NCBI GenBank assembly: GCA_037310415.1
Contig: CP147780.1
Coordinates: 1,056,001 to 1,120,000, forward strand
From: Candidatus Atabeyarchaeum deiterrae
Lineage (GTDB): Archaea > Asgardarchaeota > Atabeyarchaeia > Atabeyarchaeales > Atabeyarchaeaceae
Direction of reading: 5' to 3'
DNA: 64,000 nucleotides
The notes under the pieces were generated by a model. The model saw only the letters and a list, made by a program, of their open reading frames with translations. It ran no database searches and had not been told where the DNA came from. The position numbers and the translations under genes are program-made. How positions within the stretch are numbered: the first letter of the stretch is position 1; each line of letters starts with the position of its first letter. Shown here piece by piece: positions 23,614 to 61,243 of the stretch.

Positions 23614-23985
23614 CTATTGGCTGCTCTCCAAACGGCTCACGTAGTCTCTGTGATCGAGCATCGCTCTTATGGCTAGTGCTGCCGTCTGAGGTTCCTCGTA
23701 TACCGGGATGCCACCTTCTTGCCTAAGGTACCGCAAGACCCTGCTATCTTCATTGGCATGTATCGTTAATCCGATTATTGGCTTTCCGTATCTATGCTTA
23801 AGTTCCGCAAGCAGTTTGGCTTCATCCAGTTCTCGTTTTGTTCCCATCTCCGTTATGATCGTATCTTCTAAGACAACGGTGAAAGCTTCGAGTAACCCGA
23901 CACCTATGACTATCACGCAATCTATGTAGCCTTCTTTGAGAAGCGTTTCGGCGCATGTAGACACAACGCCTTCCCCGAAGGCTCC
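23614..23985 (-). pseudogene. Orphan 3' fragment (123 codons) of the acetate-CoA ligase alpha gene; left boundary of the island
   Basis: 96/111 aa identical to the C-terminus of 59789..61243 from GAFG onward; similarity stops abruptly at 23985. Confidence 0.92.
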
Positions 23986-24290
23986 GTTTTTGTTTGAGGA
24001 GCATTTTCTCGGCTCGGTTTTGTTTTTCCGCATTTTCTTTTGGTTCTTCACGCGCGTGAAATGCATGTTTTCTTGGGTGGTATTTGAAGTCCACGCGGGG
24101 CATTTTTCGGTGGTGCATTCTACGGTGCCGTAGACTGTTTTGCATGATTCTTCGGATTCTGTCTGGTTTTGCGTTTTTGTTGCAGTTTCGGTCTTGTTTT
24201 GCATTTTTCGGTGGTTCTCATAGCTTCTCCTTGCACGGATCTGTGGGTCGGCAGACGTGTGGAGTTTTGGCTCGGGGCCCGTGGTCGCCT
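23986..24290 (+). other. A-poor, T/G-rich non-coding tract with palindromes and a 15-nt direct repeat
   Basis: About 30 A in 305 nt by hand count; palindrome TTCACGCGCGTGAA (24047-24060); hairpin TCTACGG-tg-CCGTAGA (24119-24134); GCATTTTTCGGTGGT at 24100 and 24201. Confidence 0.75.
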
Positions 24291-25148: not shown

Positions 25149-25526
25149 GGGTCTTCTTAAGACCGTATTGATTCTACGATAGTCGGAGAAGAGTTAGGTG
25201 ATGAGAGGACTTCTAGTGTTAACTGAGGGTATGTTCAACAATGCAGGTTGCGCCAGGTCAGGAATTCGTGGAGAAGTATGTTGAGAGGATGAATTCTCCT
25301 TGTAGTGTTTGAACTCTTGATTGCTGCTCTCTATTTTGCATTTAGAGGGGTAAGCTAACTAGTTTTGCCCTGGTGTTCTTGGGGCGTTTTTGGCGCTTGC
25401 TCTTCTTGGCTTGCCAGTTGCTTCTGTTAGAAGCGTTTGTCTGGAGTGCACTTTGTTCGTGGGACTATTTTTCTCTTGTTTACGTCCATCTGAGGCGACT
25501 TACCCTTAGTTTTTTTGTTTTGGCTC

Positions 25527-25696
25527 GGCGCCCTATGCCTTCGCCCTAAAAGAACAAGTGGCGTATGTTCGGATAACGTTCCACGTGCGCCTACTTTGTT
25601 CTTTTCCCCCTCGCCTCTCGGCTCGGGGTCGGGCTCAGGCAGGGCGCCTCGCAGTGTACGGTCAAATCACCTCTCTCTTTCGTTCGAGGTGATTTG
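25527..25696 (+). ncRNA. Structured leader: branched stem-loop plus RBS-sequestering hairpin
   Basis: Stems 25527-34/25641-48, 25548-57/25596-605, 25560-68/25583-91 (two G-U pairs), a side hairpin at 25607-28, and a perfect 11-bp stem 25663-73/25686-96. Confidence 0.65.
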
Positions 25697-25697
25697 C

Positions 25698-26828
25698 TTG
25701 TACAATAATGATGATTGTTCTCGTGGCTGTGGTTCCTTTGGGCGTCGAAGGTATTCGTTGAGGGTTGATGCTCTTTCCGCTGAGGAGTGGGCTTATCTTC
25801 GTGGCTTGTACCTCGCTGATGGGACTAAGCGTGTTACCTTCTGTCTTGGTGGAGATGAGGTGGAGTTGTCGCTGAAGCTTGTTGATATGCTAAACCGCGC
25901 TGGGTTGAAGCCGATTGTGAAGAAGGATCCAGATGAAGAAATGTTGCTTGTGTCCGCGTGGTCGTTGAGTCTCCTTGAGTTTCTGGGGCGCAAAGGCACT
26001 CTGCTGCATGATGTTGAGGCGCGGAGGAGGTTCTTCGAGGAGAACAGGCTGATGAGTGTTGGGCTGGGTGTTCCCTTCATTGCGGGTCTGATAGACGGTG
26101 ACGGCTTCTGTCAGGTGAGTGTTGTTGATGAGCTTGGTCCCTTCGGCAAGGTGAACAGGTGGAGGTGGGGGTTTGCTCAGAAGAAGTTGCCGTTTCTCCT
26201 CGACTACTTCAGGGAGTTCGTTGAGTCTCTCGCACTCAAGAGCGTAAGGATTCGTGTAATGAGGAATGGCGTAGTTGTTGCAGAGATTTGTCAGGCTGGC
26301 ATCAAGGCTCTACTCAAGGCTGGCATAGCCTCCCACTCAGTGAAGGCGAACCAGTGGGTGAAGAGGGTGGAGGAGCTTGACAAAACGAGTAGGCGAGTGA
26401 GCTATTTGACTTCTAATGAGGTTGCCGAGAAGCTGAGAGTAAGTAAGCCAACCGTGTGGCGCTGGCTCAAAACTGGAAAGATGCGATGTGCCCAGTGGAC
26501 TGCGAGGAGGCTGAAGAACGGCAAGGAGACCTATCTGTCGCATCGTTACATCCATGCGGAGGAAGTTGAGCGCGTGAGGTATGAACTTGAAGAGGAAAGA
26601 GCGCTATTGAAACAAGTCAGGGAAGATGGATACGTCAAGTTCAATGATGTGGCTAGAGTTTTGAACGTTCCGAAAACCACTCTGCGACGGTGGTTTCGGA
26701 GCGGAAGAGTGCAAGTTACATTAGTCCGAGGGCGCAATAGAGACCGCGGGTACTGGATGCCGAGGAAGGACGTTGAGCGCCTCAAGCGCCGGGTCCGCAA
26801 GTCTGAAGACTTTTTGAAACGTCGCTGA
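25698..26828 (+). CDS. Double-motif LAGLIDADG endonuclease-family protein with two C-terminal excisionase/MerR-type HTH domains
   Basis: AYLRGLYLADG and FIAGLIDGDG; YLTSNEVAEKLRVSKPTVWRWLKTG and VKFNDVARVLNVPKTTLRRWFRSG; TTG start after GAGGTGA. Confidence 0.85.
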   Translation: MYNNDDCSRGCGSFGRRRYSLRVDALSAEEWAYLRGLYLADGTKRVTFCLGGDEVELSLKLVDMLNRAGLKPIVKKDPDEEMLLVSAWSLSLLEFLGRKGTLLHDVEARRRFFEENRLMSVGLGVPFIAGLIDGDGFCQVSVVDELGPFGKVNRWRWGFAQKKLPFLLDYFREFVESLALKSVRIRVMRNGVVVAEICQAGIKALLKAGIASHSVKANQWVKRVEELDKTSRRVSYLTSNEVAEKLRVSKPTVWRWLKTGKMRCAQWTARRLKNGKETYLSHRYIHAEEVERVRYELEEERALLKQVREDGYVKFNDVARVLNVPKTTLRRWFRSGRVQVTLVRGRNRDRGYWMPRKDVERLKRRVRKSEDFLKRR

Positions 26829-40317: not shown

Positions 40318-40359
40318 GTTGAGCGTCTCAAGCGCGAACTTAAAGGTGACGAATCATGA
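40318..40359 (+). repeat. Remnant of the HTH terminal helix ending in a stop codon
   Basis: GTTGAGCGTCTCAAGCGC is 17/18 identical to 26772-26789; reads VERLKRELKGDES*. Confidence 0.75.
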
Positions 40360-54936: not shown

Positions 54937-57900
54937 TTGGGGTTAGAGAATCGTGTGAAGTTTCGTTGGCTTGCTTGGAGAAAGAGGGTTGTTGTTGTTC
55001 TATTTGTCGGTGTTATGGCCCTCCTCTTGCTGTTGAGATTCTTCGGTGAAGCGATATCGAGGGCTCTCTCTTCTGTACTTCCTAGTGCCGTTTCAATTTT
55101 TGCTCAACTCATCGCACCCACTATCATTGCCAGCTTCATGATCTTTTTAGTCGTTTTCGTTAGAAGAGGTTCAGGATTGTTCCTCCGCCGGAAGCGAACC
55201 TATAATATTGGCGGCCTCGCTATATCGGCTCTTGAGTTGCTGAGTGTTCCCAGTGAAAGTGTCAGGCAACGGGTTAGAGGCGCCGTATCGAGAGACGAAC
55301 AAGAGGATGGTGCTGCGGTGAGCGATGAGAGGCAGTACCAGTTCAGTCACCTAGCAAGTTTGTTTGAGAAGAATGGGTCTAAACGTGTAGGAAATGGTGG
55401 AGGCTTGGGATACGAGATCCACTTCAAGAACGGACTCATAGGCGTGGATTTCGTGGTGACTGGTCAGGACACAGAGGAGTGTAAAAGAAGAAGGGAGCAG
55501 ATTGAGGCAAGTTTGCTGAGTAAGTTTCCTGTTCAACTCATGGAGGTGAGAAGAGAACATCTCGTGGACCTTGCGTTGATGGGGTTCGTGGAGAAAGCTA
55601 ACTACAGAGGAACGGTTGAAGTTCTGGCAGTAGACAACAGAATCGCCCAGGTTGTCTCTGGTGGGCGATCCCGCTATCTTGGGGTCGTCGCTCTCATGGG
55701 TCGCCCCGAGATGAGCGCCCACGAACAGCGTTGTCAGATTGACCAGTTCATAACTGGTATTAACAGCGCATTGAGGTTTGGTCGCGGCGGTGAAGAGAGA
55801 GGTGAAGTGCGCTTTGTTGTCTCATTTGAGGCTTCAAACCCTCCTAAGCACCCCAGTGATGCGTCGTTGAGGGAGAAGTTGCGGGAGAAGCCCGATGTAA
55901 GGTTGAGTCTGGCACGAAAAAAGGTTGAAGTTGAGGCAATGGAGATTGAGTTCGGTCAGCGCGTAGGATGGTGGAAGGTCTCCACATATGTAGTCGTGGT
56001 GAGCGACAGCCTTGGCCTTGTCAAGCAGAAGCTTGAGTCGGTAAGAAGTGTCTTGAGAAGTGTTTGGAGTGGCAGCCACTTCTCGCCAGTTAGCAGTTTT
56101 CTTCATGGTAAAGAGATTGTAGCGTACCTTCCCCGTATCATGCGGAGAGTTCTCCTTCCAAGGAGATACGTGACCGGGATGAGCAGCCTAAGATTGAGTT
56201 CTCTGGTTCACATACCCGAGGAGCCGCATCCGCCTCTGACTAGGATGACCGCGCCTCTCTTTGAGGCACCTGACCCGTCAGTGATTATCGGCAGCAACCA
56301 TGTTGACGTTATCACGCTGGGGGATGTTCTCAATTCTACTGGTGGAGCGTTGTACCCCCTAACTGTTCCCGTGCGTGTGTTAGGCACTCACGCTGTTGTG
56401 TTCGGCGAGACAGGTTCAGGGAAAACCTGCCATATTATCAGTTTGTTATGGGATATGACTGGAGGAAACGAGGCTAATGGGGCTGAAAATGAGCTTGGCT
56501 CCCGTATTCCCTTTCTCGTACTCGATCAGAAAGGAGAGTACCGCTGCCTCATTCGACCTGAGAGGGGAATAATCTATTTCTTGCCTGGGTCTCGCCTTGC
56601 TCCCCTTTTGATAAACTTGTTCGACCCCCAAGGTGATGAGCCTGAGAGTCACGCGAAGCGCATTTTCAACATTATCAGGGAGATCTTATTCACAAACCGA
56701 ACTGAACTCACTCCGCAGATGGAGCGCGTGCTCTACGATGTTCTCAGTATGTCTATTGGGGGCGACTGGGACAAGTTTAACGCGAATCTAGCAGAGTATC
56801 TTACTCTGCACGGAGAAGAGTTGCCTCAACTAGGCGCGACTATCCAAGGGATACTTAACAGAGTGGGGCAGTTCACTCGACCACCCCTCTCCCAAGTGTT
56901 CAACTGCAGAGAAAGCAACGTGAACTTCAACCACCTTGTCCAGCGCAACGCCATAATTGATCTTAGTGAACTTCGAAGGCAGGGCACGCCTGAAGATGTT
57001 CGGTTGCTAGCCAACATCATTGGCAAGTATGTTAGCGTTGCGTCGTTGAACAGGGGCCCTGACTTCAGTGGTCAGCTGAGACACCTGTTCGTTGTGGACG
57101 ATGCCCTCGATGTGGTGCCTGAGGTGCTTGCGAAGAAGACTACCGCCGACGTGGGAACAATCGAGTACATGGCTATGCTTCTTCGAGCGACGGGTCAAGG
57201 CTTGATCGTGGTGTCGCAAAGACCTAACATAGCAGAGAACGTGATCGGGAACAGCGGTGTAAAGTTGTTCTTCAGGACCGTGGTGGACAGTAGGGATGTG
57301 GCTGCTTGGATAAACCTGTCCGAGGAGCAGCAAGCATACCTTAAGGTGTTGCCGAGGCAGGAAGCGATCATCATGGTTCCCCAGCACCCTGCGCCGATGC
57401 GGATTCGGGTCCAAGATGTCAGCACCTTCGTAAGTAGAAAGGTTACCGATCGCGACATAACTGTTAACAACATGATCAACTACCCGCTCATGTATGACAT
57501 GTGGGGAGAAGAGGTGGGAAGGCAAAGCAGTGAAAATAAGCTGGAGCCATCGCGGTTGCACAGTGGGGAGAACTCACTCTTGGAAAGTGAAACAGTCGGG
57601 GTCAAAACGGCAGAAGCAGTCTTGGAAGAGGAATGCGTTGGGAAAGCGACGAAAGGGGAGGACGGTGACGAATGCGAGGAAGATAAGGTTTGCAGGCTAA
57701 ATGCAGATAGCCGTGAGGCTTGGGGAAAACTAAGCCCATGTCTAGCGGACGGACTTGCCGTTGACAGCGAGTTTGTTTCCCGTATTCTCGGCGTGTCGTC
57801 GAAGGTTGCTCACCGCATGATGCTCATGCTCAAATCCGCCGGTCTAATTGTGGTTGCGAAGATACCCAACTACGCATACGGTAAGGGTTTCCAGTACGCG

Positions 57901-59121
57901 TACTACGTGCCGAAGAAGGGAACATATGGTAGTGGCATAGTAGCGTACGTTCGTGAGAAGATCTACAGCGAGGTGACCAGCAGGGAAGCGCTGGCTGAGT
58001 TGCAACCCAAGGGGATGAACAGCGCAGACATGATCATCCAATACATGTATCCTCTCATTATTCAATTAGCTGGCGAGAGCAGCTCCGTGTTGTCAGTGTT
58101 GAGAGATAGAATAGGGAGAGCGGCAGAGGAATTCGCTTCTACTAGGGGAAGACTACTCTCCGACACGGGCAGAGACATCGAGACTAAGGTTGTTGTTGTC
58201 ACCTTGTGGAGCAGCATCGCTAAGAAACTTGAGGAAGCGCGCCGAAGAGGCGAACTAGGCAGAGACTGCTTATGTGTCTTGGCCTTCAATAGGCGAACCA
58301 TGTCTCTCCTCGCAGACTATGTACTTCACCATATACAGCTTGGAATCCTGACGGGGGAAGGAGAGGACGGAGCGGATGAAGGTAAGACAAGACTTGAGAA
58401 AGACGATTCGAGTCGACTGGAGGCATCGGATGAAGCAGGATCGGGAACTGGAGACATTGAAAATGAGAATAAGAGGTTGATTAGGAATAGGGTCTTGGCG
58501 GTTGTCAAAGAGTCTGGGGGCATTGAGCCTCATGCGGTTGCTGAGAAACTTGGCGTACGTCTGCCTAGAGTCAGCGAGGTTGCCAAGAGTTTGAGGGACG
58601 AGGGATTAATCAAGGTTGCGAGGAATATCCCATTCATCTCCTCGCTCAAGAAAAGTAACGCAGTCTTCTATCTTGACGCAGCGAGACCGACGGTTCTCCA
58701 CGACACGCTTATGAATGAGATTTGGAGGTGGAACTCCGAGTTGGGAGGTCGCTGTAGGGACTACGGCTTTGAGTATGGTGGGAAGACTTGGTGCACGGAT
58801 GGCTTGCTTGAGAACAGAGGTGGCAGCTTCATACTTGAGGTAGTTGCTGGCGACTACGAGGAGAGGATTGTTGAGCAGCTTCAAGCGTACTCCGGCAAGG
58901 TTGGCTACATGGGGATCAAGGGGATAGTAGTAGTTTTCTTGGTTATTGATTGTCTTGTTAGGGTGAGAGAGGAGATTGCGGCTAGTGAGATTGCTCTTCA
59001 CAATGTAGAGCTTCTTACTACACTTCGTTCTAGAGAGGAGAAACTTCAATTCAAGTCACTGCTATTGCATGGGCGTACTATGTCTTATCATAGAAATCAT
59101 GATGCGATCAAGAGAAGCTGA
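54937..59121 (+). CDS. Membrane-anchored HerA/FtsK/coupling-protein-like ATPase (DUF87-type) with C-terminal wHTH and nuclease-fold modules
   Basis: 2 N-terminal TMs; HAVVFGETGSGKT, LDQKGEY, VVDDA and LRATG..VSQRP; two wHTH segments; HDTL..TDG..LEV..Y tail. Confidence 0.8.
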   Translation: MGLENRVKFRWLAWRKRVVVVLFVGVMALLLLLRFFGEAISRALSSVLPSAVSIFAQLIAPTIIASFMIFLVVFVRRGSGLFLRRKRTYNIGGLAISALELLSVPSESVRQRVRGAVSRDEQEDGAAVSDERQYQFSHLASLFEKNGSKRVGNGGGLGYEIHFKNGLIGVDFVVTGQDTEECKRRREQIEASLLSKFPVQLMEVRREHLVDLALMGFVEKANYRGTVEVLAVDNRIAQVVSGGRSRYLGVVALMGRPEMSAHEQRCQIDQFITGINSALRFGRGGEERGEVRFVVSFEASNPPKHPSDASLREKLREKPDVRLSLARKKVEVEAMEIEFGQRVGWWKVSTYVVVVSDSLGLVKQKLESVRSVLRSVWSGSHFSPVSSFLHGKEIVAYLPRIMRRVLLPRRYVTGMSSLRLSSLVHIPEEPHPPLTRMTAPLFEAPDPSVIIGSNHVDVITLGDVLNSTGGALYPLTVPVRVLGTHAVVFGETGSGKTCHIISLLWDMTGGNEANGAENELGSRIPFLVLDQKGEYRCLIRPERGIIYFLPGSRLAPLLINLFDPQGDEPESHAKRIFNIIREILFTNRTELTPQMERVLYDVLSMSIGGDWDKFNANLAEYLTLHGEELPQLGATIQGILNRVGQFTRPPLSQVFNCRESNVNFNHLVQRNAIIDLSELRRQGTPEDVRLLANIIGKYVSVASLNRGPDFSGQLRHLFVVDDALDVVPEVLAKKTTADVGTIEYMAMLLRATGQGLIVVSQRPNIAENVIGNSGVKLFFRTVVDSRDVAAWINLSEEQQAYLKVLPRQEAIIMVPQHPAPMRIRVQDVSTFVSRKVTDRDITVNNMINYPLMYDMWGEEVGRQSSENKLEPSRLHSGENSLLESETVGVKTAEAVLEEECVGKATKGEDGDECEEDKVCRLNADSREAWGKLSPCLADGLAVDSEFVSRILGVSSKVAHRMMLMLKSAGLIVVAKIPNYAYGKGFQYAYYVPKKGTYGSGIVAYVREKIYSEVTSREALAELQPKGMNSADMIIQYMYPLIIQLAGESSSVLSVLRDRIGRAAEEFASTRGRLLSDTGRDIETKVVVVTLWSSIAKKLEEARRRGELGRDCLCVLAFNRRTMSLLADYVLHHIQLGILTGEGEDGADEGKTRLEKDDSSRLEASDEAGSGTGDIENENKRLIRNRVLAVVKESGGIEPHAVAEKLGVRLPRVSEVAKSLRDEGLIKVARNIPFISSLKKSNAVFYLDAARPTVLHDTLMNEIWRWNSELGGRCRDYGFEYGGKTWCTDGLLENRGGSFILEVVAGDYEERIVEQLQAYSGKVGYMGIKGIVVVFLVIDCLVRVREEIAASEIALHNVELLTTLRSREEKLQFKSLLLHGRTMSYHRNHDAIKRS

Positions 59122-59139: not shown

Positions 59140-59221
59140 CTATTGTTGTCTAACACGTTTCAATTCGTTTGTGCAATTCAGCATCGCCCTTATTGCCTGA
59201 GCTGCCATCTGAGGGTCCTCG
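59140..59221 (-). pseudogene. Third, 27-codon orphan acdA 3' tail
   Basis: EDPQMAAQAIRAMLNCTNELKRVRQQ*; 59180-59221 is 36/42 nt identical to 59841-59882 and 35/42 to 23657-23698. Confidence 0.88.
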
Positions 59222-59307
59222 GAACTGAGGGACTTCTCTCCCCTGGAACCTAGCCATATTCCTGTAAGATTATCGAGTGGAAAACTTAAGAAGGTTCAGC
59301 CGATCAC

Positions 59308-59772
59308 GTGACTATCGTTTCCTTGGAGCGGAGGCTTCCGATCTTGGACGAAGTTGCAGGAGCAACACTTATCCTGGCTTTTGTTACATTTCTATTGGTT
59401 GTTGTGTCTATAATTGACACGAGCAGAATATTGAAAGATGACCGAAAAGGCAGGCAGATCAAGTGGGTCGAGCACAGAATAGCCGAACTCTACTATCCGC
59501 TGAATCATAACATGGGCGACTCGATTACTCTTTACGCTTTCATGCCTTCAATAGAGAACAAGCTCTACTTGGCTGAACCTGACCTCAGGAAGGCACTGGA
59601 GGAATTCAGAAACTCCAATATAAGCATCCGAACAATTGGCGGAATGCTCACAGGGGAGATCTTGGAAAACGAGGAACATGTCAGAGACTTGAATAGGGTA
59701 ATCAAGAATCTAGTAAAATCACAGCTGGAAGGTCTTCAAGGACAACTTGACAACTTGACGGGCGCGAAGTAG
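59308..59772 (+). CDS. Single-TM membrane protein (single-gene cassette)
   Basis: N-terminal hydrophobic helix followed by a helical domain containing ELYYPL. Confidence 0.7.
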   Translation: MTIVSLERRLPILDEVAGATLILAFVTFLLVVVSIIDTSRILKDDRKGRQIKWVEHRIAELYYPLNHNMGDSITLYAFMPSIENKLYLAEPDLRKALEEFRNSNISIRTIGGMLTGEILENEEHVRDLNRVIKNLVKSQLEGLQGQLDNLTGAK

Positions 59773-59788
59773 GAAGTACACCCTGGAG

Positions 59789-61243
59789 CTATTGATGTGC
59801 TACCACTAGGGGGATGCGCTCCAAGTAGCTTTTGTAGTCGAGCATTGCCCTTATCGCCTGAGCCGCTGTCTGAGGATCCTCGTATACTGGGATGCCCCCC
59901 TCTTGTCTGAGATAGCGCAGAACCCTGCTATCTTGATTGGCATATATTGTCAATCCTACTATCGGTTTGCCGTACTTTTGCTTGAGTCCAGCGAGTGCTT
60001 TCGCTTCATCTAGTTCCCTCTTGGTTCCCATCTCTGTCATGATAGTGTCTTCCAGGACAAGGGTGAAGGCTTCCAGCAACCCTACGCCTATGACTATCAC
60101 GGCGTCAATGTAATCTTGTTTTAGAAGCGTTTCCGTACACGTTGACACTACACCTTCACCGAAGGCGCCATCGGTCAAATCAGCGGGATTAGCATGACTC
60201 CAGTACGTCGGAAGGATCTTATTCAATGTTTCAATAGCATCCTTTTTGAGTGGAGGAACTTTAAGGTTCAGGTGATCAGCTTGATCCATGAATTGTACGC
60301 CGACGCCTCCACCGAACGTTACGATCCCTATGTTAGGTCCGTGGGGAATCGGTTGGGTTGAGAAAGCTATTGCTAGATCAAACATTCTAGAAACACTATC
60401 AGCACGTATTGCTCCGCTCGCTTTGAAAGCTGCCGAAACAATTCTATCTGAACCCGCAAGCGTTCCGACATGTGATGCGACGACTTTCTGGCTCGTTTCT
60501 CCTGTTCCTGCTTTCATAACTAGAACCGGTTTTCTTAAGGAAGCCTGCTTCACCGTCTCCATGTATTTTCTGCCATCTCTGAGGCCTTCAAAATAAGTCA
60601 TGATTACCTTCGTTGTAGGGTCATGCGTGTAGTATTCAATGATGTCGGATAAGTCTAGGTTGGCTGAGTCCCCTACGTTAACAAACTTGCTTAGACCCAT
60701 TCGGCGCCGATACGTTAATCCGTGTACGATAACTCCGGGGCTCCCACCTTGTGACACAAACGCGATATTGCCGGGAAGAGGTCTTATGGGACCGAGCAAG
60801 GCTGAGAAGCTTGAGGATGCGCTATACACGCCGTTGCAATTAGGGCCAGTGAAGCGGATCCCACCCTTTCTGGCTATTCGTACGACCTCATGTTCCAGCT
60901 CTGAACCTGACTCTCCAATTTCGCTAAACCCAGCAGAGATAACAATGGCTGCTTTCACGTTCTGTGAGACGCAATCCTCCATTGTCTCTGGCACGAATTT
61001 CGCTGGAAGGGTGAAGATTGCGCAGTCAATATAGTCCTTTATCTGACTGACTCTATTGACTGTTTCAAGTTTCAATATCTTTGAAGTTGCGTTAGAGTTC
61101 ACGAGATAGACTCTGCCTTTGAATCCCCCATTCACAATATTCTTTATCAAAAAACCACTGACACTGATGGGATCTCTCGACGCGCCAATGCACGCCACAA
61201 CCTTCGGGTTGAACAATGGTTCAAGTTCCTCAAAGATACCCAA
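59789..61243 (-). CDS. acdA: Acetate/acyl-CoA ligase (ADP-forming) alpha subunit
   Basis: LFNPKVVACIGAS, ISAGFSE, GPNCNG, SQGG, ASHVG (phospho-His) and NPADLT. Confidence 0.9.
   Translation of the reverse strand: MGIFEELEPLFNPKVVACIGASRDPISVSGFLIKNIVNGGFKGRVYLVNSNATSKILKLETVNRVSQIKDYIDCAIFTLPAKFVPETMEDCVSQNVKAAIVISAGFSEIGESGSELEHEVVRIARKGGIRFTGPNCNGVYSASSSFSALLGPIRPLPGNIAFVSQGGSPGVIVHGLTYRRRMGLSKFVNVGDSANLDLSDIIEYYTHDPTTKVIMTYFEGLRDGRKYMETVKQASLRKPVLVMKAGTGETSQKVVASHVGTLAGSDRIVSAAFKASGAIRADSVSRMFDLAIAFSTQPIPHGPNIGIVTFGGGVGVQFMDQADHLNLKVPPLKKDAIETLNKILPTYWSHANPADLTDGAFGEGVVSTCTETLLKQDYIDAVIVIGVGLLEAFTLVLEDTIMTEMGTKRELDEAKALAGLKQKYGKPIVGLTIYANQDSRVLRYLRQEGGIPVYEDPQTAAQAIRAMLDYKSYLERIPLVVAHQ

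Follow-up and report, generated by a model that had tools for sequence, protein, structure and literature searches.

An orphaned acdA 3′ end and a one-gene block inside an island-borne gene tail of an Asgard archaeon

In Streptococcus thermophilus, the integrative elements of the ICESt1/ICESt3 family accrete, together with cis-mobilizable elements (CIMEs), at the 3′ end of fda by means of one integrase, one attachment (att) core and near-identical repeats. Campbell-type insertion-duplication, familiar from suicide plasmids, is a single crossover with a 3′ gene fragment that yields one full gene and a truncated copy as reciprocal chimeras. The locus described here lies in a 64,000-nt window (contig CP147780.1, positions 1,056,001 to 1,120,000; assembly GCA_037310415.1) of the closed, 2,756,679-bp chromosome of Candidatus Atabeyarchaeum deiterrae, a member of the Asgard class Atabeyarchaeia (genome G000). 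Behind the gene acdA, a 661-bp block with a single membrane-protein gene (the cassette gene) separates the working gene from a short, gene-less copy of its own 3′ end. Our preferred reading, held with moderate confidence, is that this orphan arose by a single-crossover (Campbell-type) insertion into an acdA tail supplied by a defence island.

The locus is like the fda arrays in several respects: the 3′ end of a housekeeping gene is the target, the element supplies the replacement end, tandem arrays are parted by truncated gene ends, and small relics without recombination genes lie beside a larger element. It differs in having no recognisable integrase, two homology boundaries (GAFG and EDPQ), a repeat of 76-86% identity and a single-gene block of 661 bp. 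As in a CIME, repeats from the target gene are found on both sides of the block (66-nt repeat, 661-nt spacing) and mobility genes are absent, but the site is not the one used by the neighbouring complete element (outer tail from gene nt 1073, inner tail from nt 1362). The truncated copy starts where the incoming homology started, as in Campbell-type insertion; that process, however, is a laboratory case with identical homology of hundreds of bases, whereas the acdA locus offers ~66-83 nt of diverged homology and is known as the integrated form only. Integron cassettes are likewise captured as single small open reading frames (ORFs) and stacked at one locus. In contrast to them, the acdA block has no IntI and no attC-like inverted repeat, the repeat that brackets it is a piece of the target gene, and its ORF has its own upstream region and is convergent to the target gene. 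No PF00589 match lies in or adjoining the island, and the block ends carry no terminal inverted repeat. For the same comparison with insertion sequences and miniature inverted-repeat transposable elements, no inverted repeat is found at the block boundaries and the flanking repeat is 66 nt of target-gene homology. Island accretion at a gene 3′ end is a known kind of event.

A small element inside a larger integrated one has been described in the same archaeal lineage. Mini-Yucahu-i, of 2,644 bp, circularises and resides within the integrated Yucahu-i of Atabeyarchaeia-1 (PMC11529989). It is four times the size of the acdA block and has several genes, and its circular form appeared in reads. 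Its host element, unlike the acdA island, encodes a tyrosine integrase, and the att motif there is AT-rich, 11 bp long and not a gene 3′ end (PMC11529989). The Atabeyarchaeia mobile genetic element paper describes two 'defense islands'; the present locus is not discussed in the main text of that paper or of its preprint. The nearest named homologue of the acdA-like gene is from 'Promethearchaeati archaeon SRVP18_Atabeyarchaeia-1'.

Orphan tail and one-gene block

The window holds three acdA endings, labelled T1 (the end of the working gene, with T1b as its last 31 codons), T2 (a long displaced tail) and T3 (the short orphan). The two long copies form a 300-nt repeat of 77% identity (59822-60121 and 23638-23937), and the 36.5 kb between them is a defence island in the acdA 3′ end (1,079,614-1,116,171 in genome coordinates). 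A 5.4-kb metagenome contig of a near-identical strain (L010; L-numbers denote loci or contigs) has an empty site, matching window 63266-59838 and then 23987-21696 at 98.95%. Because it joins 59838 to 23987, T2 is the native acdA end and the current end is island-borne. The site is also empty in six other relatives, among them the genome of one relative (G001) and four further metagenome contigs, where acdA is followed directly by a thiolase-like gene.

The last 31 codons of acdA (59789-59882) recur at 59140-59222 on the same strand, 661 nt onward, and a repeat search returns a direct repeat of 66 nt at 76% identity (59156-59221 and 59817-59882, spacing 661). The translation of T3, ..EDPQMAAQAIRAMLNCTNELKRVRQQ*, runs in a single frame through to the stop. 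The initial annotation called this a third acdA tail from a 42-nt match, and the match proved significant. The core of the current tail (42 nt, 59841-59882) is matched best elsewhere in the window at 59180 (36/42) and in the long tail at 23657 (33/42), while in 300 shuffles of the window that kept dinucleotides the best match averaged 23.9/42 with a maximum of 28/42. Searched against the whole 2.76-Mb genome, T3 gives E values of 2e-7 (blastn) and 2.7e-4 (tblastn), and an nhmmer profile built from ten acdA tails scores it at 42.9 bits (E 1.6e-11 genome-wide). These comparisons confirm T3 as a true homologue of the acdA 3′ end. The same profile, run over the genome and eight related loci, detects no second short orphan. 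An origin from an acdA paralogue was ruled out, with none of the eight paralogues found in the genome matching T3.

The profile alignment of T3 is confident from CGAGGA (the ED codons) onward. A weak, gapped similarity of low posterior probability may reach some 20 nt upstream of EDPQ, so the inner breakpoint is fixed only to about ±20 nt. The long tail runs from gene nt 1073 and the short one from nt 1362, that is 96 codons apart, in agreement with the ~97 codons first proposed. T1 and T3 share no exact run longer than 8 nt, and the residues T459, D469 and Y473, near-invariant in the family, are replaced in T3. An exact 28-mer of T3 has zero matches in Joint Genome Institute (JGI) metagenome contigs and IMG/VR, and Rfam and tRNA scans of the region gave nothing credible. 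All three tails do end in CAA-TAG, as had been remarked, but this is shared ancestry and not a separate signal because several relatives have the same ending.

The ORF at 59308-59772 is the sole one of substance between T1b and T3 and has a hydrophobic N-terminus; the recorded form of its protein is 142 aa and starts at a TTG (59344). A 12-nt near-repeat of the junction motif (59209-59220 and 59225-59236) has its second copy in the upstream region of the gene. The description of the block as one gene without a mobility enzyme stands: it contains only this 154-aa ORF, for which Pfam, PHROGs and PADLOC give no family match. A word-index protein search returned the self-match only and IMG/VR held no relatives, while a full HMMER search of 1.8 billion representatives found eight remote ones (E 5e-11 to 6e-4; 73-167 aa), all with the membrane helix, the motif RKDRxIRWIE..L..LYYPL and a conserved LYLA segment. 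The ESM Atlas model (predicted local distance difference test 0.87) resembles a prefoldin-type helical hairpin on a membrane anchor and offers no functional lead. Across 301 Asgard genomes, the family occurs only in G000 and in the genome of a relative from a sister genus (G002), where it is a broken fragment at another variable site. Two relatives on short Logan contigs lie among small unknown ORFs with no acdA adjoining. Conserved across this small family, the cassette gene is real; because the family is patchy and its members sit in variable spots away from acdA, it is a sporadic accessory gene that does not travel with acdA. The idea that its homologues might neighbour acdA is not borne out, since none adjoins it in the loci examined.

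Separately, the Logan contig L016 carries 106 nt of non-coding DNA (1485-1590) directly upstream of a cassette-family gene that is 81% identical to G000 2,159,894-2,160,001. The remainder of this contig matches two other distant regions of G000, making it a mosaic of variable-region pieces.

Mosaic tails and the origin of the block

G002 carries a related island. Its arm before the displaced tail is 75% identical to that of the window, its second acdA tail begins at profile position 71 (GAFG), as T2 does, and the C-terminus of its HerA-like protein is 62-65% identical (73% in DNA); sequence similarity thus indicates that the two islands share both ends. In G002 the acdA stop is followed after 22 nt by the HerA-like stop, with no cassette and no third tail. 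Because this related island lacks both, the 661 bp is an indel, falling exactly inside the island-supplied acdA tail. The proposal of a nested one-gene capture in acdA at a second boundary was therefore largely right in form, but the host is the island-borne replacement tail, the native tail being T2. A relative without the block, with acdA next to the HerA-like gene, had been predicted and is found in G002; its acdA, however, ends in ..MLDYKSYLERLRQ, like the current tail, instead of the expected ..MLNCTNELKRVRQQ. Among 13 acdA homologues and eight genomic loci, no acdA ends like T3, an outcome that the initial annotation itself had named as speaking against it.

By position T3 is the counterpart of the G002 tail, with 18 nt against 22 nt from its stop to that of HerA, whereas by sequence the counterpart is T1b. 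T1 agrees with the G002 tail at 35/42 positions in the core and at 22/24 (92%) after it, both reading ..DYKSYLER. It matches as far as ..YLER, then diverges into a unique IPLVVAHQ*, an end that is 15 nt longer and three residues above the family norm. T1 and T3 agree at 36/42 core positions (86%) and then at 14/24 (58%; Fisher p 0.018), and after the core T3 likewise agrees with the G002 tail at 14/24. T3 is unique to ..ELKR and then reads RVRQQ*, against RLRQ* in G002. Because this reciprocal mosaic of T1 and T3 relative to G002 flips at the Arg codon, a single crossover would fall close to the (E/K)R codon, some 4 to 9 codons ahead of the stop.

On this preferred account, a short DNA carrying an ~80-nt acdA-tail fragment and one small membrane-protein gene would have entered the island-supplied tail. 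The resident tail ..DYKSYLER-LRQ* would have crossed once with the incoming fragment ..NCTNELKR-IPLVVAHQ*, duplicating the shared homology on both sides and leaving acdA whole and a gene-less tail beside the HerA-like gene. The left copy (T1) would be resident-like to ..YLER and foreign from there, and the right copy (T3) foreign to ..ELKR and resident-like from there, with the old stop and the spacing to HerA retained. The recombination would be driven by homology or by an unrecognised enzyme acting in trans.

As to timing, T2 differs from a working allele at ~1% of positions, the same as the flanks. T3 lacks three near-invariant residues, whereas T2 keeps 99% identity to a working allele, so the inner event may predate the arrival of the island in this chromosome. 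With T3 as the resident tail, the inner event would be older than the island's arrival and would have come in with the island; should T3 consist mostly of the incoming fragment, that fragment may already have been decayed.

Several points weigh against a single-crossover insertion. The mosaic beyond the crossover amounts to about four residues and the spacer length, and DNA identity there is ~38%, near random. Polarity is given by one other island only, that of G002. Within the repeat no exact run exceeds 8 nt, so the event would not be recent or its partners would already have diverged. No circular or cassette-free form of the locus was seen, and JGI and IMG/VR contigs gave no matches. Tyrosine and serine recombinases are absent from the island (six-frame searches with PF00589 and PF00239 give 3 and 1 matches in the genome, all outside it), and Pfam and PHROGs scans of the island ORFs also show no recombinase.

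The block could instead be the remnant of a second, larger element that targeted acdA in tandem before the HerA-bearing island and was reduced by internal deletion to a CIME-like relic. We consider this unlikely, including the deletion it implies of all but the element's first gene and an inner stretch of the displaced tail. In its favour, the block is free of mobility genes, the acdA site holds variable islands, and the cassette stop lies 16 nt from the acdA stop, much as the tail-to-HerA gap is 22 nt in G002, which is what the first gene of a tail-bearing element would show. Yet two events are required, the deletion must have spared an intact gene with its upstream region and ended near a short palindrome where the retained tail begins, and it stays unexplained why T1b, instead of T3, resembles the HerA-adjoining tail of G002.

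The nested capture at a second breakpoint read by the initial annotation would correspond to site-specific integration at a second att core, in the EDPQ..AIRAML segment, with a recombinase supplied in trans; T3 would be wholly resident and T1b wholly incoming. The position of T3, in the ancestral place beside HerA, agrees with this, and so do the palindromes at the breakpoints. Orphan homology starts 1 nt before GAGGATCCTC, a perfect 10-nt palindrome, and the long tail 6 nt before GCCTTCGGGGAAGGC, with just 7 perfect palindromes of this class in the 1455-nt gene. They hint at a site for a nuclease or recombinase, although the test was post hoc and only T1 has the inner palindrome in perfect form. 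Since it is T1b that matches the HerA-adjoining tail of G002 (22/24 against 14/24 for T3), no acdA ends like T3, no recombinase was found and the repeat copies have no exact run above 8 nt, nested integration at an att core seems quite improbable. The argument that two breakpoints speak against a single att core holds in so far as the homology starts differ (GAFG at position 71 in both G000 and G002, EDPQ in the orphan T3 only), but it is no evidence of which enzyme, if any, was at work.

Very unlikely is a cassette that, with both tails, was ancestral to the island family and was lost from G002 by deletion. With only two islands polarity is not fixed, and RLRQ* of G002 resembles RVRQQ* of T3, as would the deletion product of a T1/T3 recombination; such an origin, however, alters only which state came first and not what T3 is. 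Origin by chance, or by local slippage duplication of T1b with later decay, has the shortness of the match in its favour and nothing else, and is hardly credible, as the shuffles and the profile score given above refute chance, while slippage should give even divergence, yet T1/T3 identity drops from 86% to 58% at the core end where T1 stays 92% identical to G002.

The defence island and its surroundings

The island carries two Eco57I/MmeI-type methylase-nucleases, GmrSD, SIR2-like, nSTAND3 NTPase and PLD-like proteins and the HerA-like ATPase; the features that bear on the acdA junctions are collected in Table 1.

Table 1. Positions of the acdA endings, the cassette block and selected island features within the window
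Feature	Position	Strand	Description
T3, orphan acdA 3′ end	59140..59222	-	last 27 codons and stop, EDPQM..RVRQQ*; stop 18 nt from the stop of the HerA-like gene
Upstream region of cassette gene	59223..59307	+	no acdA homology beyond a possible weak, gapped 20 nt
Cassette gene	59308..59772	+	154 aa; one N-terminal membrane helix, then a helical coiled-coil part
Spacer	59773..59788	.	16 nt separating the convergent cassette-gene and acdA stops
acdA-like gene	59789..61243	-	484 aa, alpha part of NDP-forming acyl-CoA synthetase (CoA_binding and Succ_CoA_lig); 3′ part from ~nt 1031 island-borne
T1b	59789..59882	-	last 31 codons of working acdA, partner of the T3 repeat; unique longer ending IPLVVAHQ*
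T2, displaced native tail	23614..23987	-	GAFG..SSQ*; marks the far island end; 99-100% identical to L010, the contig with the empty site
Island end arm beside T2	23988..24114	-	~75% to the arm beside the displaced tail in G002 (L009 775-1251 = window 24114-23637)
HerA-like membrane ATPase	54937..59121	+	1394 aa, winged helix-turn-helix modules; island gene nearest acdA
LAGLIDADG_3-like protein	25515..26828	+	437 aa, two HTH_17 domains; near the far island end

As in an integrative element, the insert regenerates the 3′ end of its target: acdA is open over 484 aa with family-like domains, and both displaced ends lie downstream. An internal recombinase and identical junction cores are both lacking. 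At the outer junction, the working acdA is 98% identical to the empty site up to about nt 900, 93% over nt 901-1030, 58% over nt 1031-1075 and 77% thereafter. T2 resumes at gene nt 1073, so that the junction (window 60172-60343) shows a gap of ~45 nt and no overlap core. Because identity is interrupted over ~45 nt where an overlap would be expected, a conversion tract derived from a donor allele accounts for the outer junction better than does conservative site-specific recombination. In the comparison with homing endonucleases, too, the divergent 45-nt patch and the 93% mosaic zone fit a conversion tract. A single att core in the 42-nt segment serving both events was considered and rejected: T2 is chromosomal from GAFG (99% to L010) and T1a foreign (77%), the opposite of what that arrangement predicts.

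The 437-aa LAGLIDADG_3-like protein is the sole candidate mobility factor of the island; its match is weak (E 0.0017) and below the curated cutoff. No link between this protein and the inner cassette is apparent, and homing by itself does not duplicate a target. With the last 200 nt of its gene as query, blastn gave a single match, of 18 nt at 40318. A 419-aa gene in L012 (741-2305) has the same faint LAGLIDADG_3 and HTH_17 matches, a likeness by domain matches in unaligned proteins. It stands alone between the genes for a DSPc phosphatase and an acyl-CoA dehydrogenase, which are neighbours in L011 and L013, and so represents a solitary mobile-gene insertion; tblastn shows three further copies in G000.

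HerA-like paralogues, 30-55% identical, occur in G000 (616,635-618,575, 107,327-109,111 and 2,654,187-2,655,437), in G001 (607,662-610,013) and on several G002 contigs. An acdA gene is absent near all those checked. Alignment of the HerA-like C-terminus against metagenome contigs found no relatives.

Two observations concern the acdA site in sister-genus genomes. Between the displaced acdA tail and the thiolase-like gene of G002 lies an extra 4.2 kb (L009 1260-5523, contig G002:C107), where G001 has only ~200 nt. Its ORFs include one of 199 aa and one for a cysteine-rich membrane protein of 430 aa, and no orphan tail was found in it. The sister-genus acdA tails (G001, G002, L011, L012 and L013) fall into two allele classes that cross body similarity, the current tail of G002 being 83% identical to those of G001 and L012 and its displaced tail 92% to that of L011. 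These alignments suggest that tails have been swapped repeatedly in empty-site genomes too.

Stacked gene ends and island growth

A genome-wide search for gene 3′ ends that recur downstream in the same orientation and without a long ORF returned T2 and three further loci. The most elaborate is an ATP-synt_ab gene on the minus strand of G000 (612,273-613,775; 500 aa; loci L028 and L029, region 593,337-613,775). It is followed at 3.9, 18.0 and 18.8 kb by three gene-less 3′ ends, starting VFPEG, SLSVFP and SIDQTL, of which the inner ones are again the shorter. Between these orphans lie defence genes of SNF2, HD and AbiEii type, and the last block, of ~0.9 kb, contains one 188-aa ORF only. The claim of repeated capture is upheld, as such events at gene 3′ ends recur in the genome. 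Two candidate orphans are smaller: 90 nt at 83% identity (126,472-126,561), 2.6 kb behind a 734-aa gene (129,145-131,349), and 54 nt at 85% (97,727-97,780), 8.3 kb behind a 171-aa gene (88,879-89,394). The tail cores of acdA, ATP-synt_ab and LAGLIDADG were searched for a shared motif, and none rose above chance.

A general process can be sketched from these loci, though as a speculative proposal that we regard as rather unlikely to be correct. Atabeyarchaeia islands might grow by an integrase-independent 'tail-swap', in which DNA bearing a short gene 3′ end recombines with the resident gene, leaving the gene intact and the old end behind. Single genes down to 0.66 kb and islands of 36 kb would thus stack behind conserved genes (acdA, ATP-synt_ab and the island's own nuclease gene). 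Orphan ends could later act as portable homology for the shuffling of cargo, and a possible start would be nuclease-induced breaks at short palindromes at gene ends.

The orphan tail is a small scar. Its value lies in being a clean, minimal case of how an Asgard defence island is built, with one gene, 661 bp and both junctions readable. The mechanism is open to test because there is a related island without the insert, no recognisable integrase and the same stacked-tail pattern at other genes of the genome, and deep population metagenomes are public. If the process is guided by homology and not driven by an integrase, that would account for cargo passing from island to island with no dedicated enzymes.

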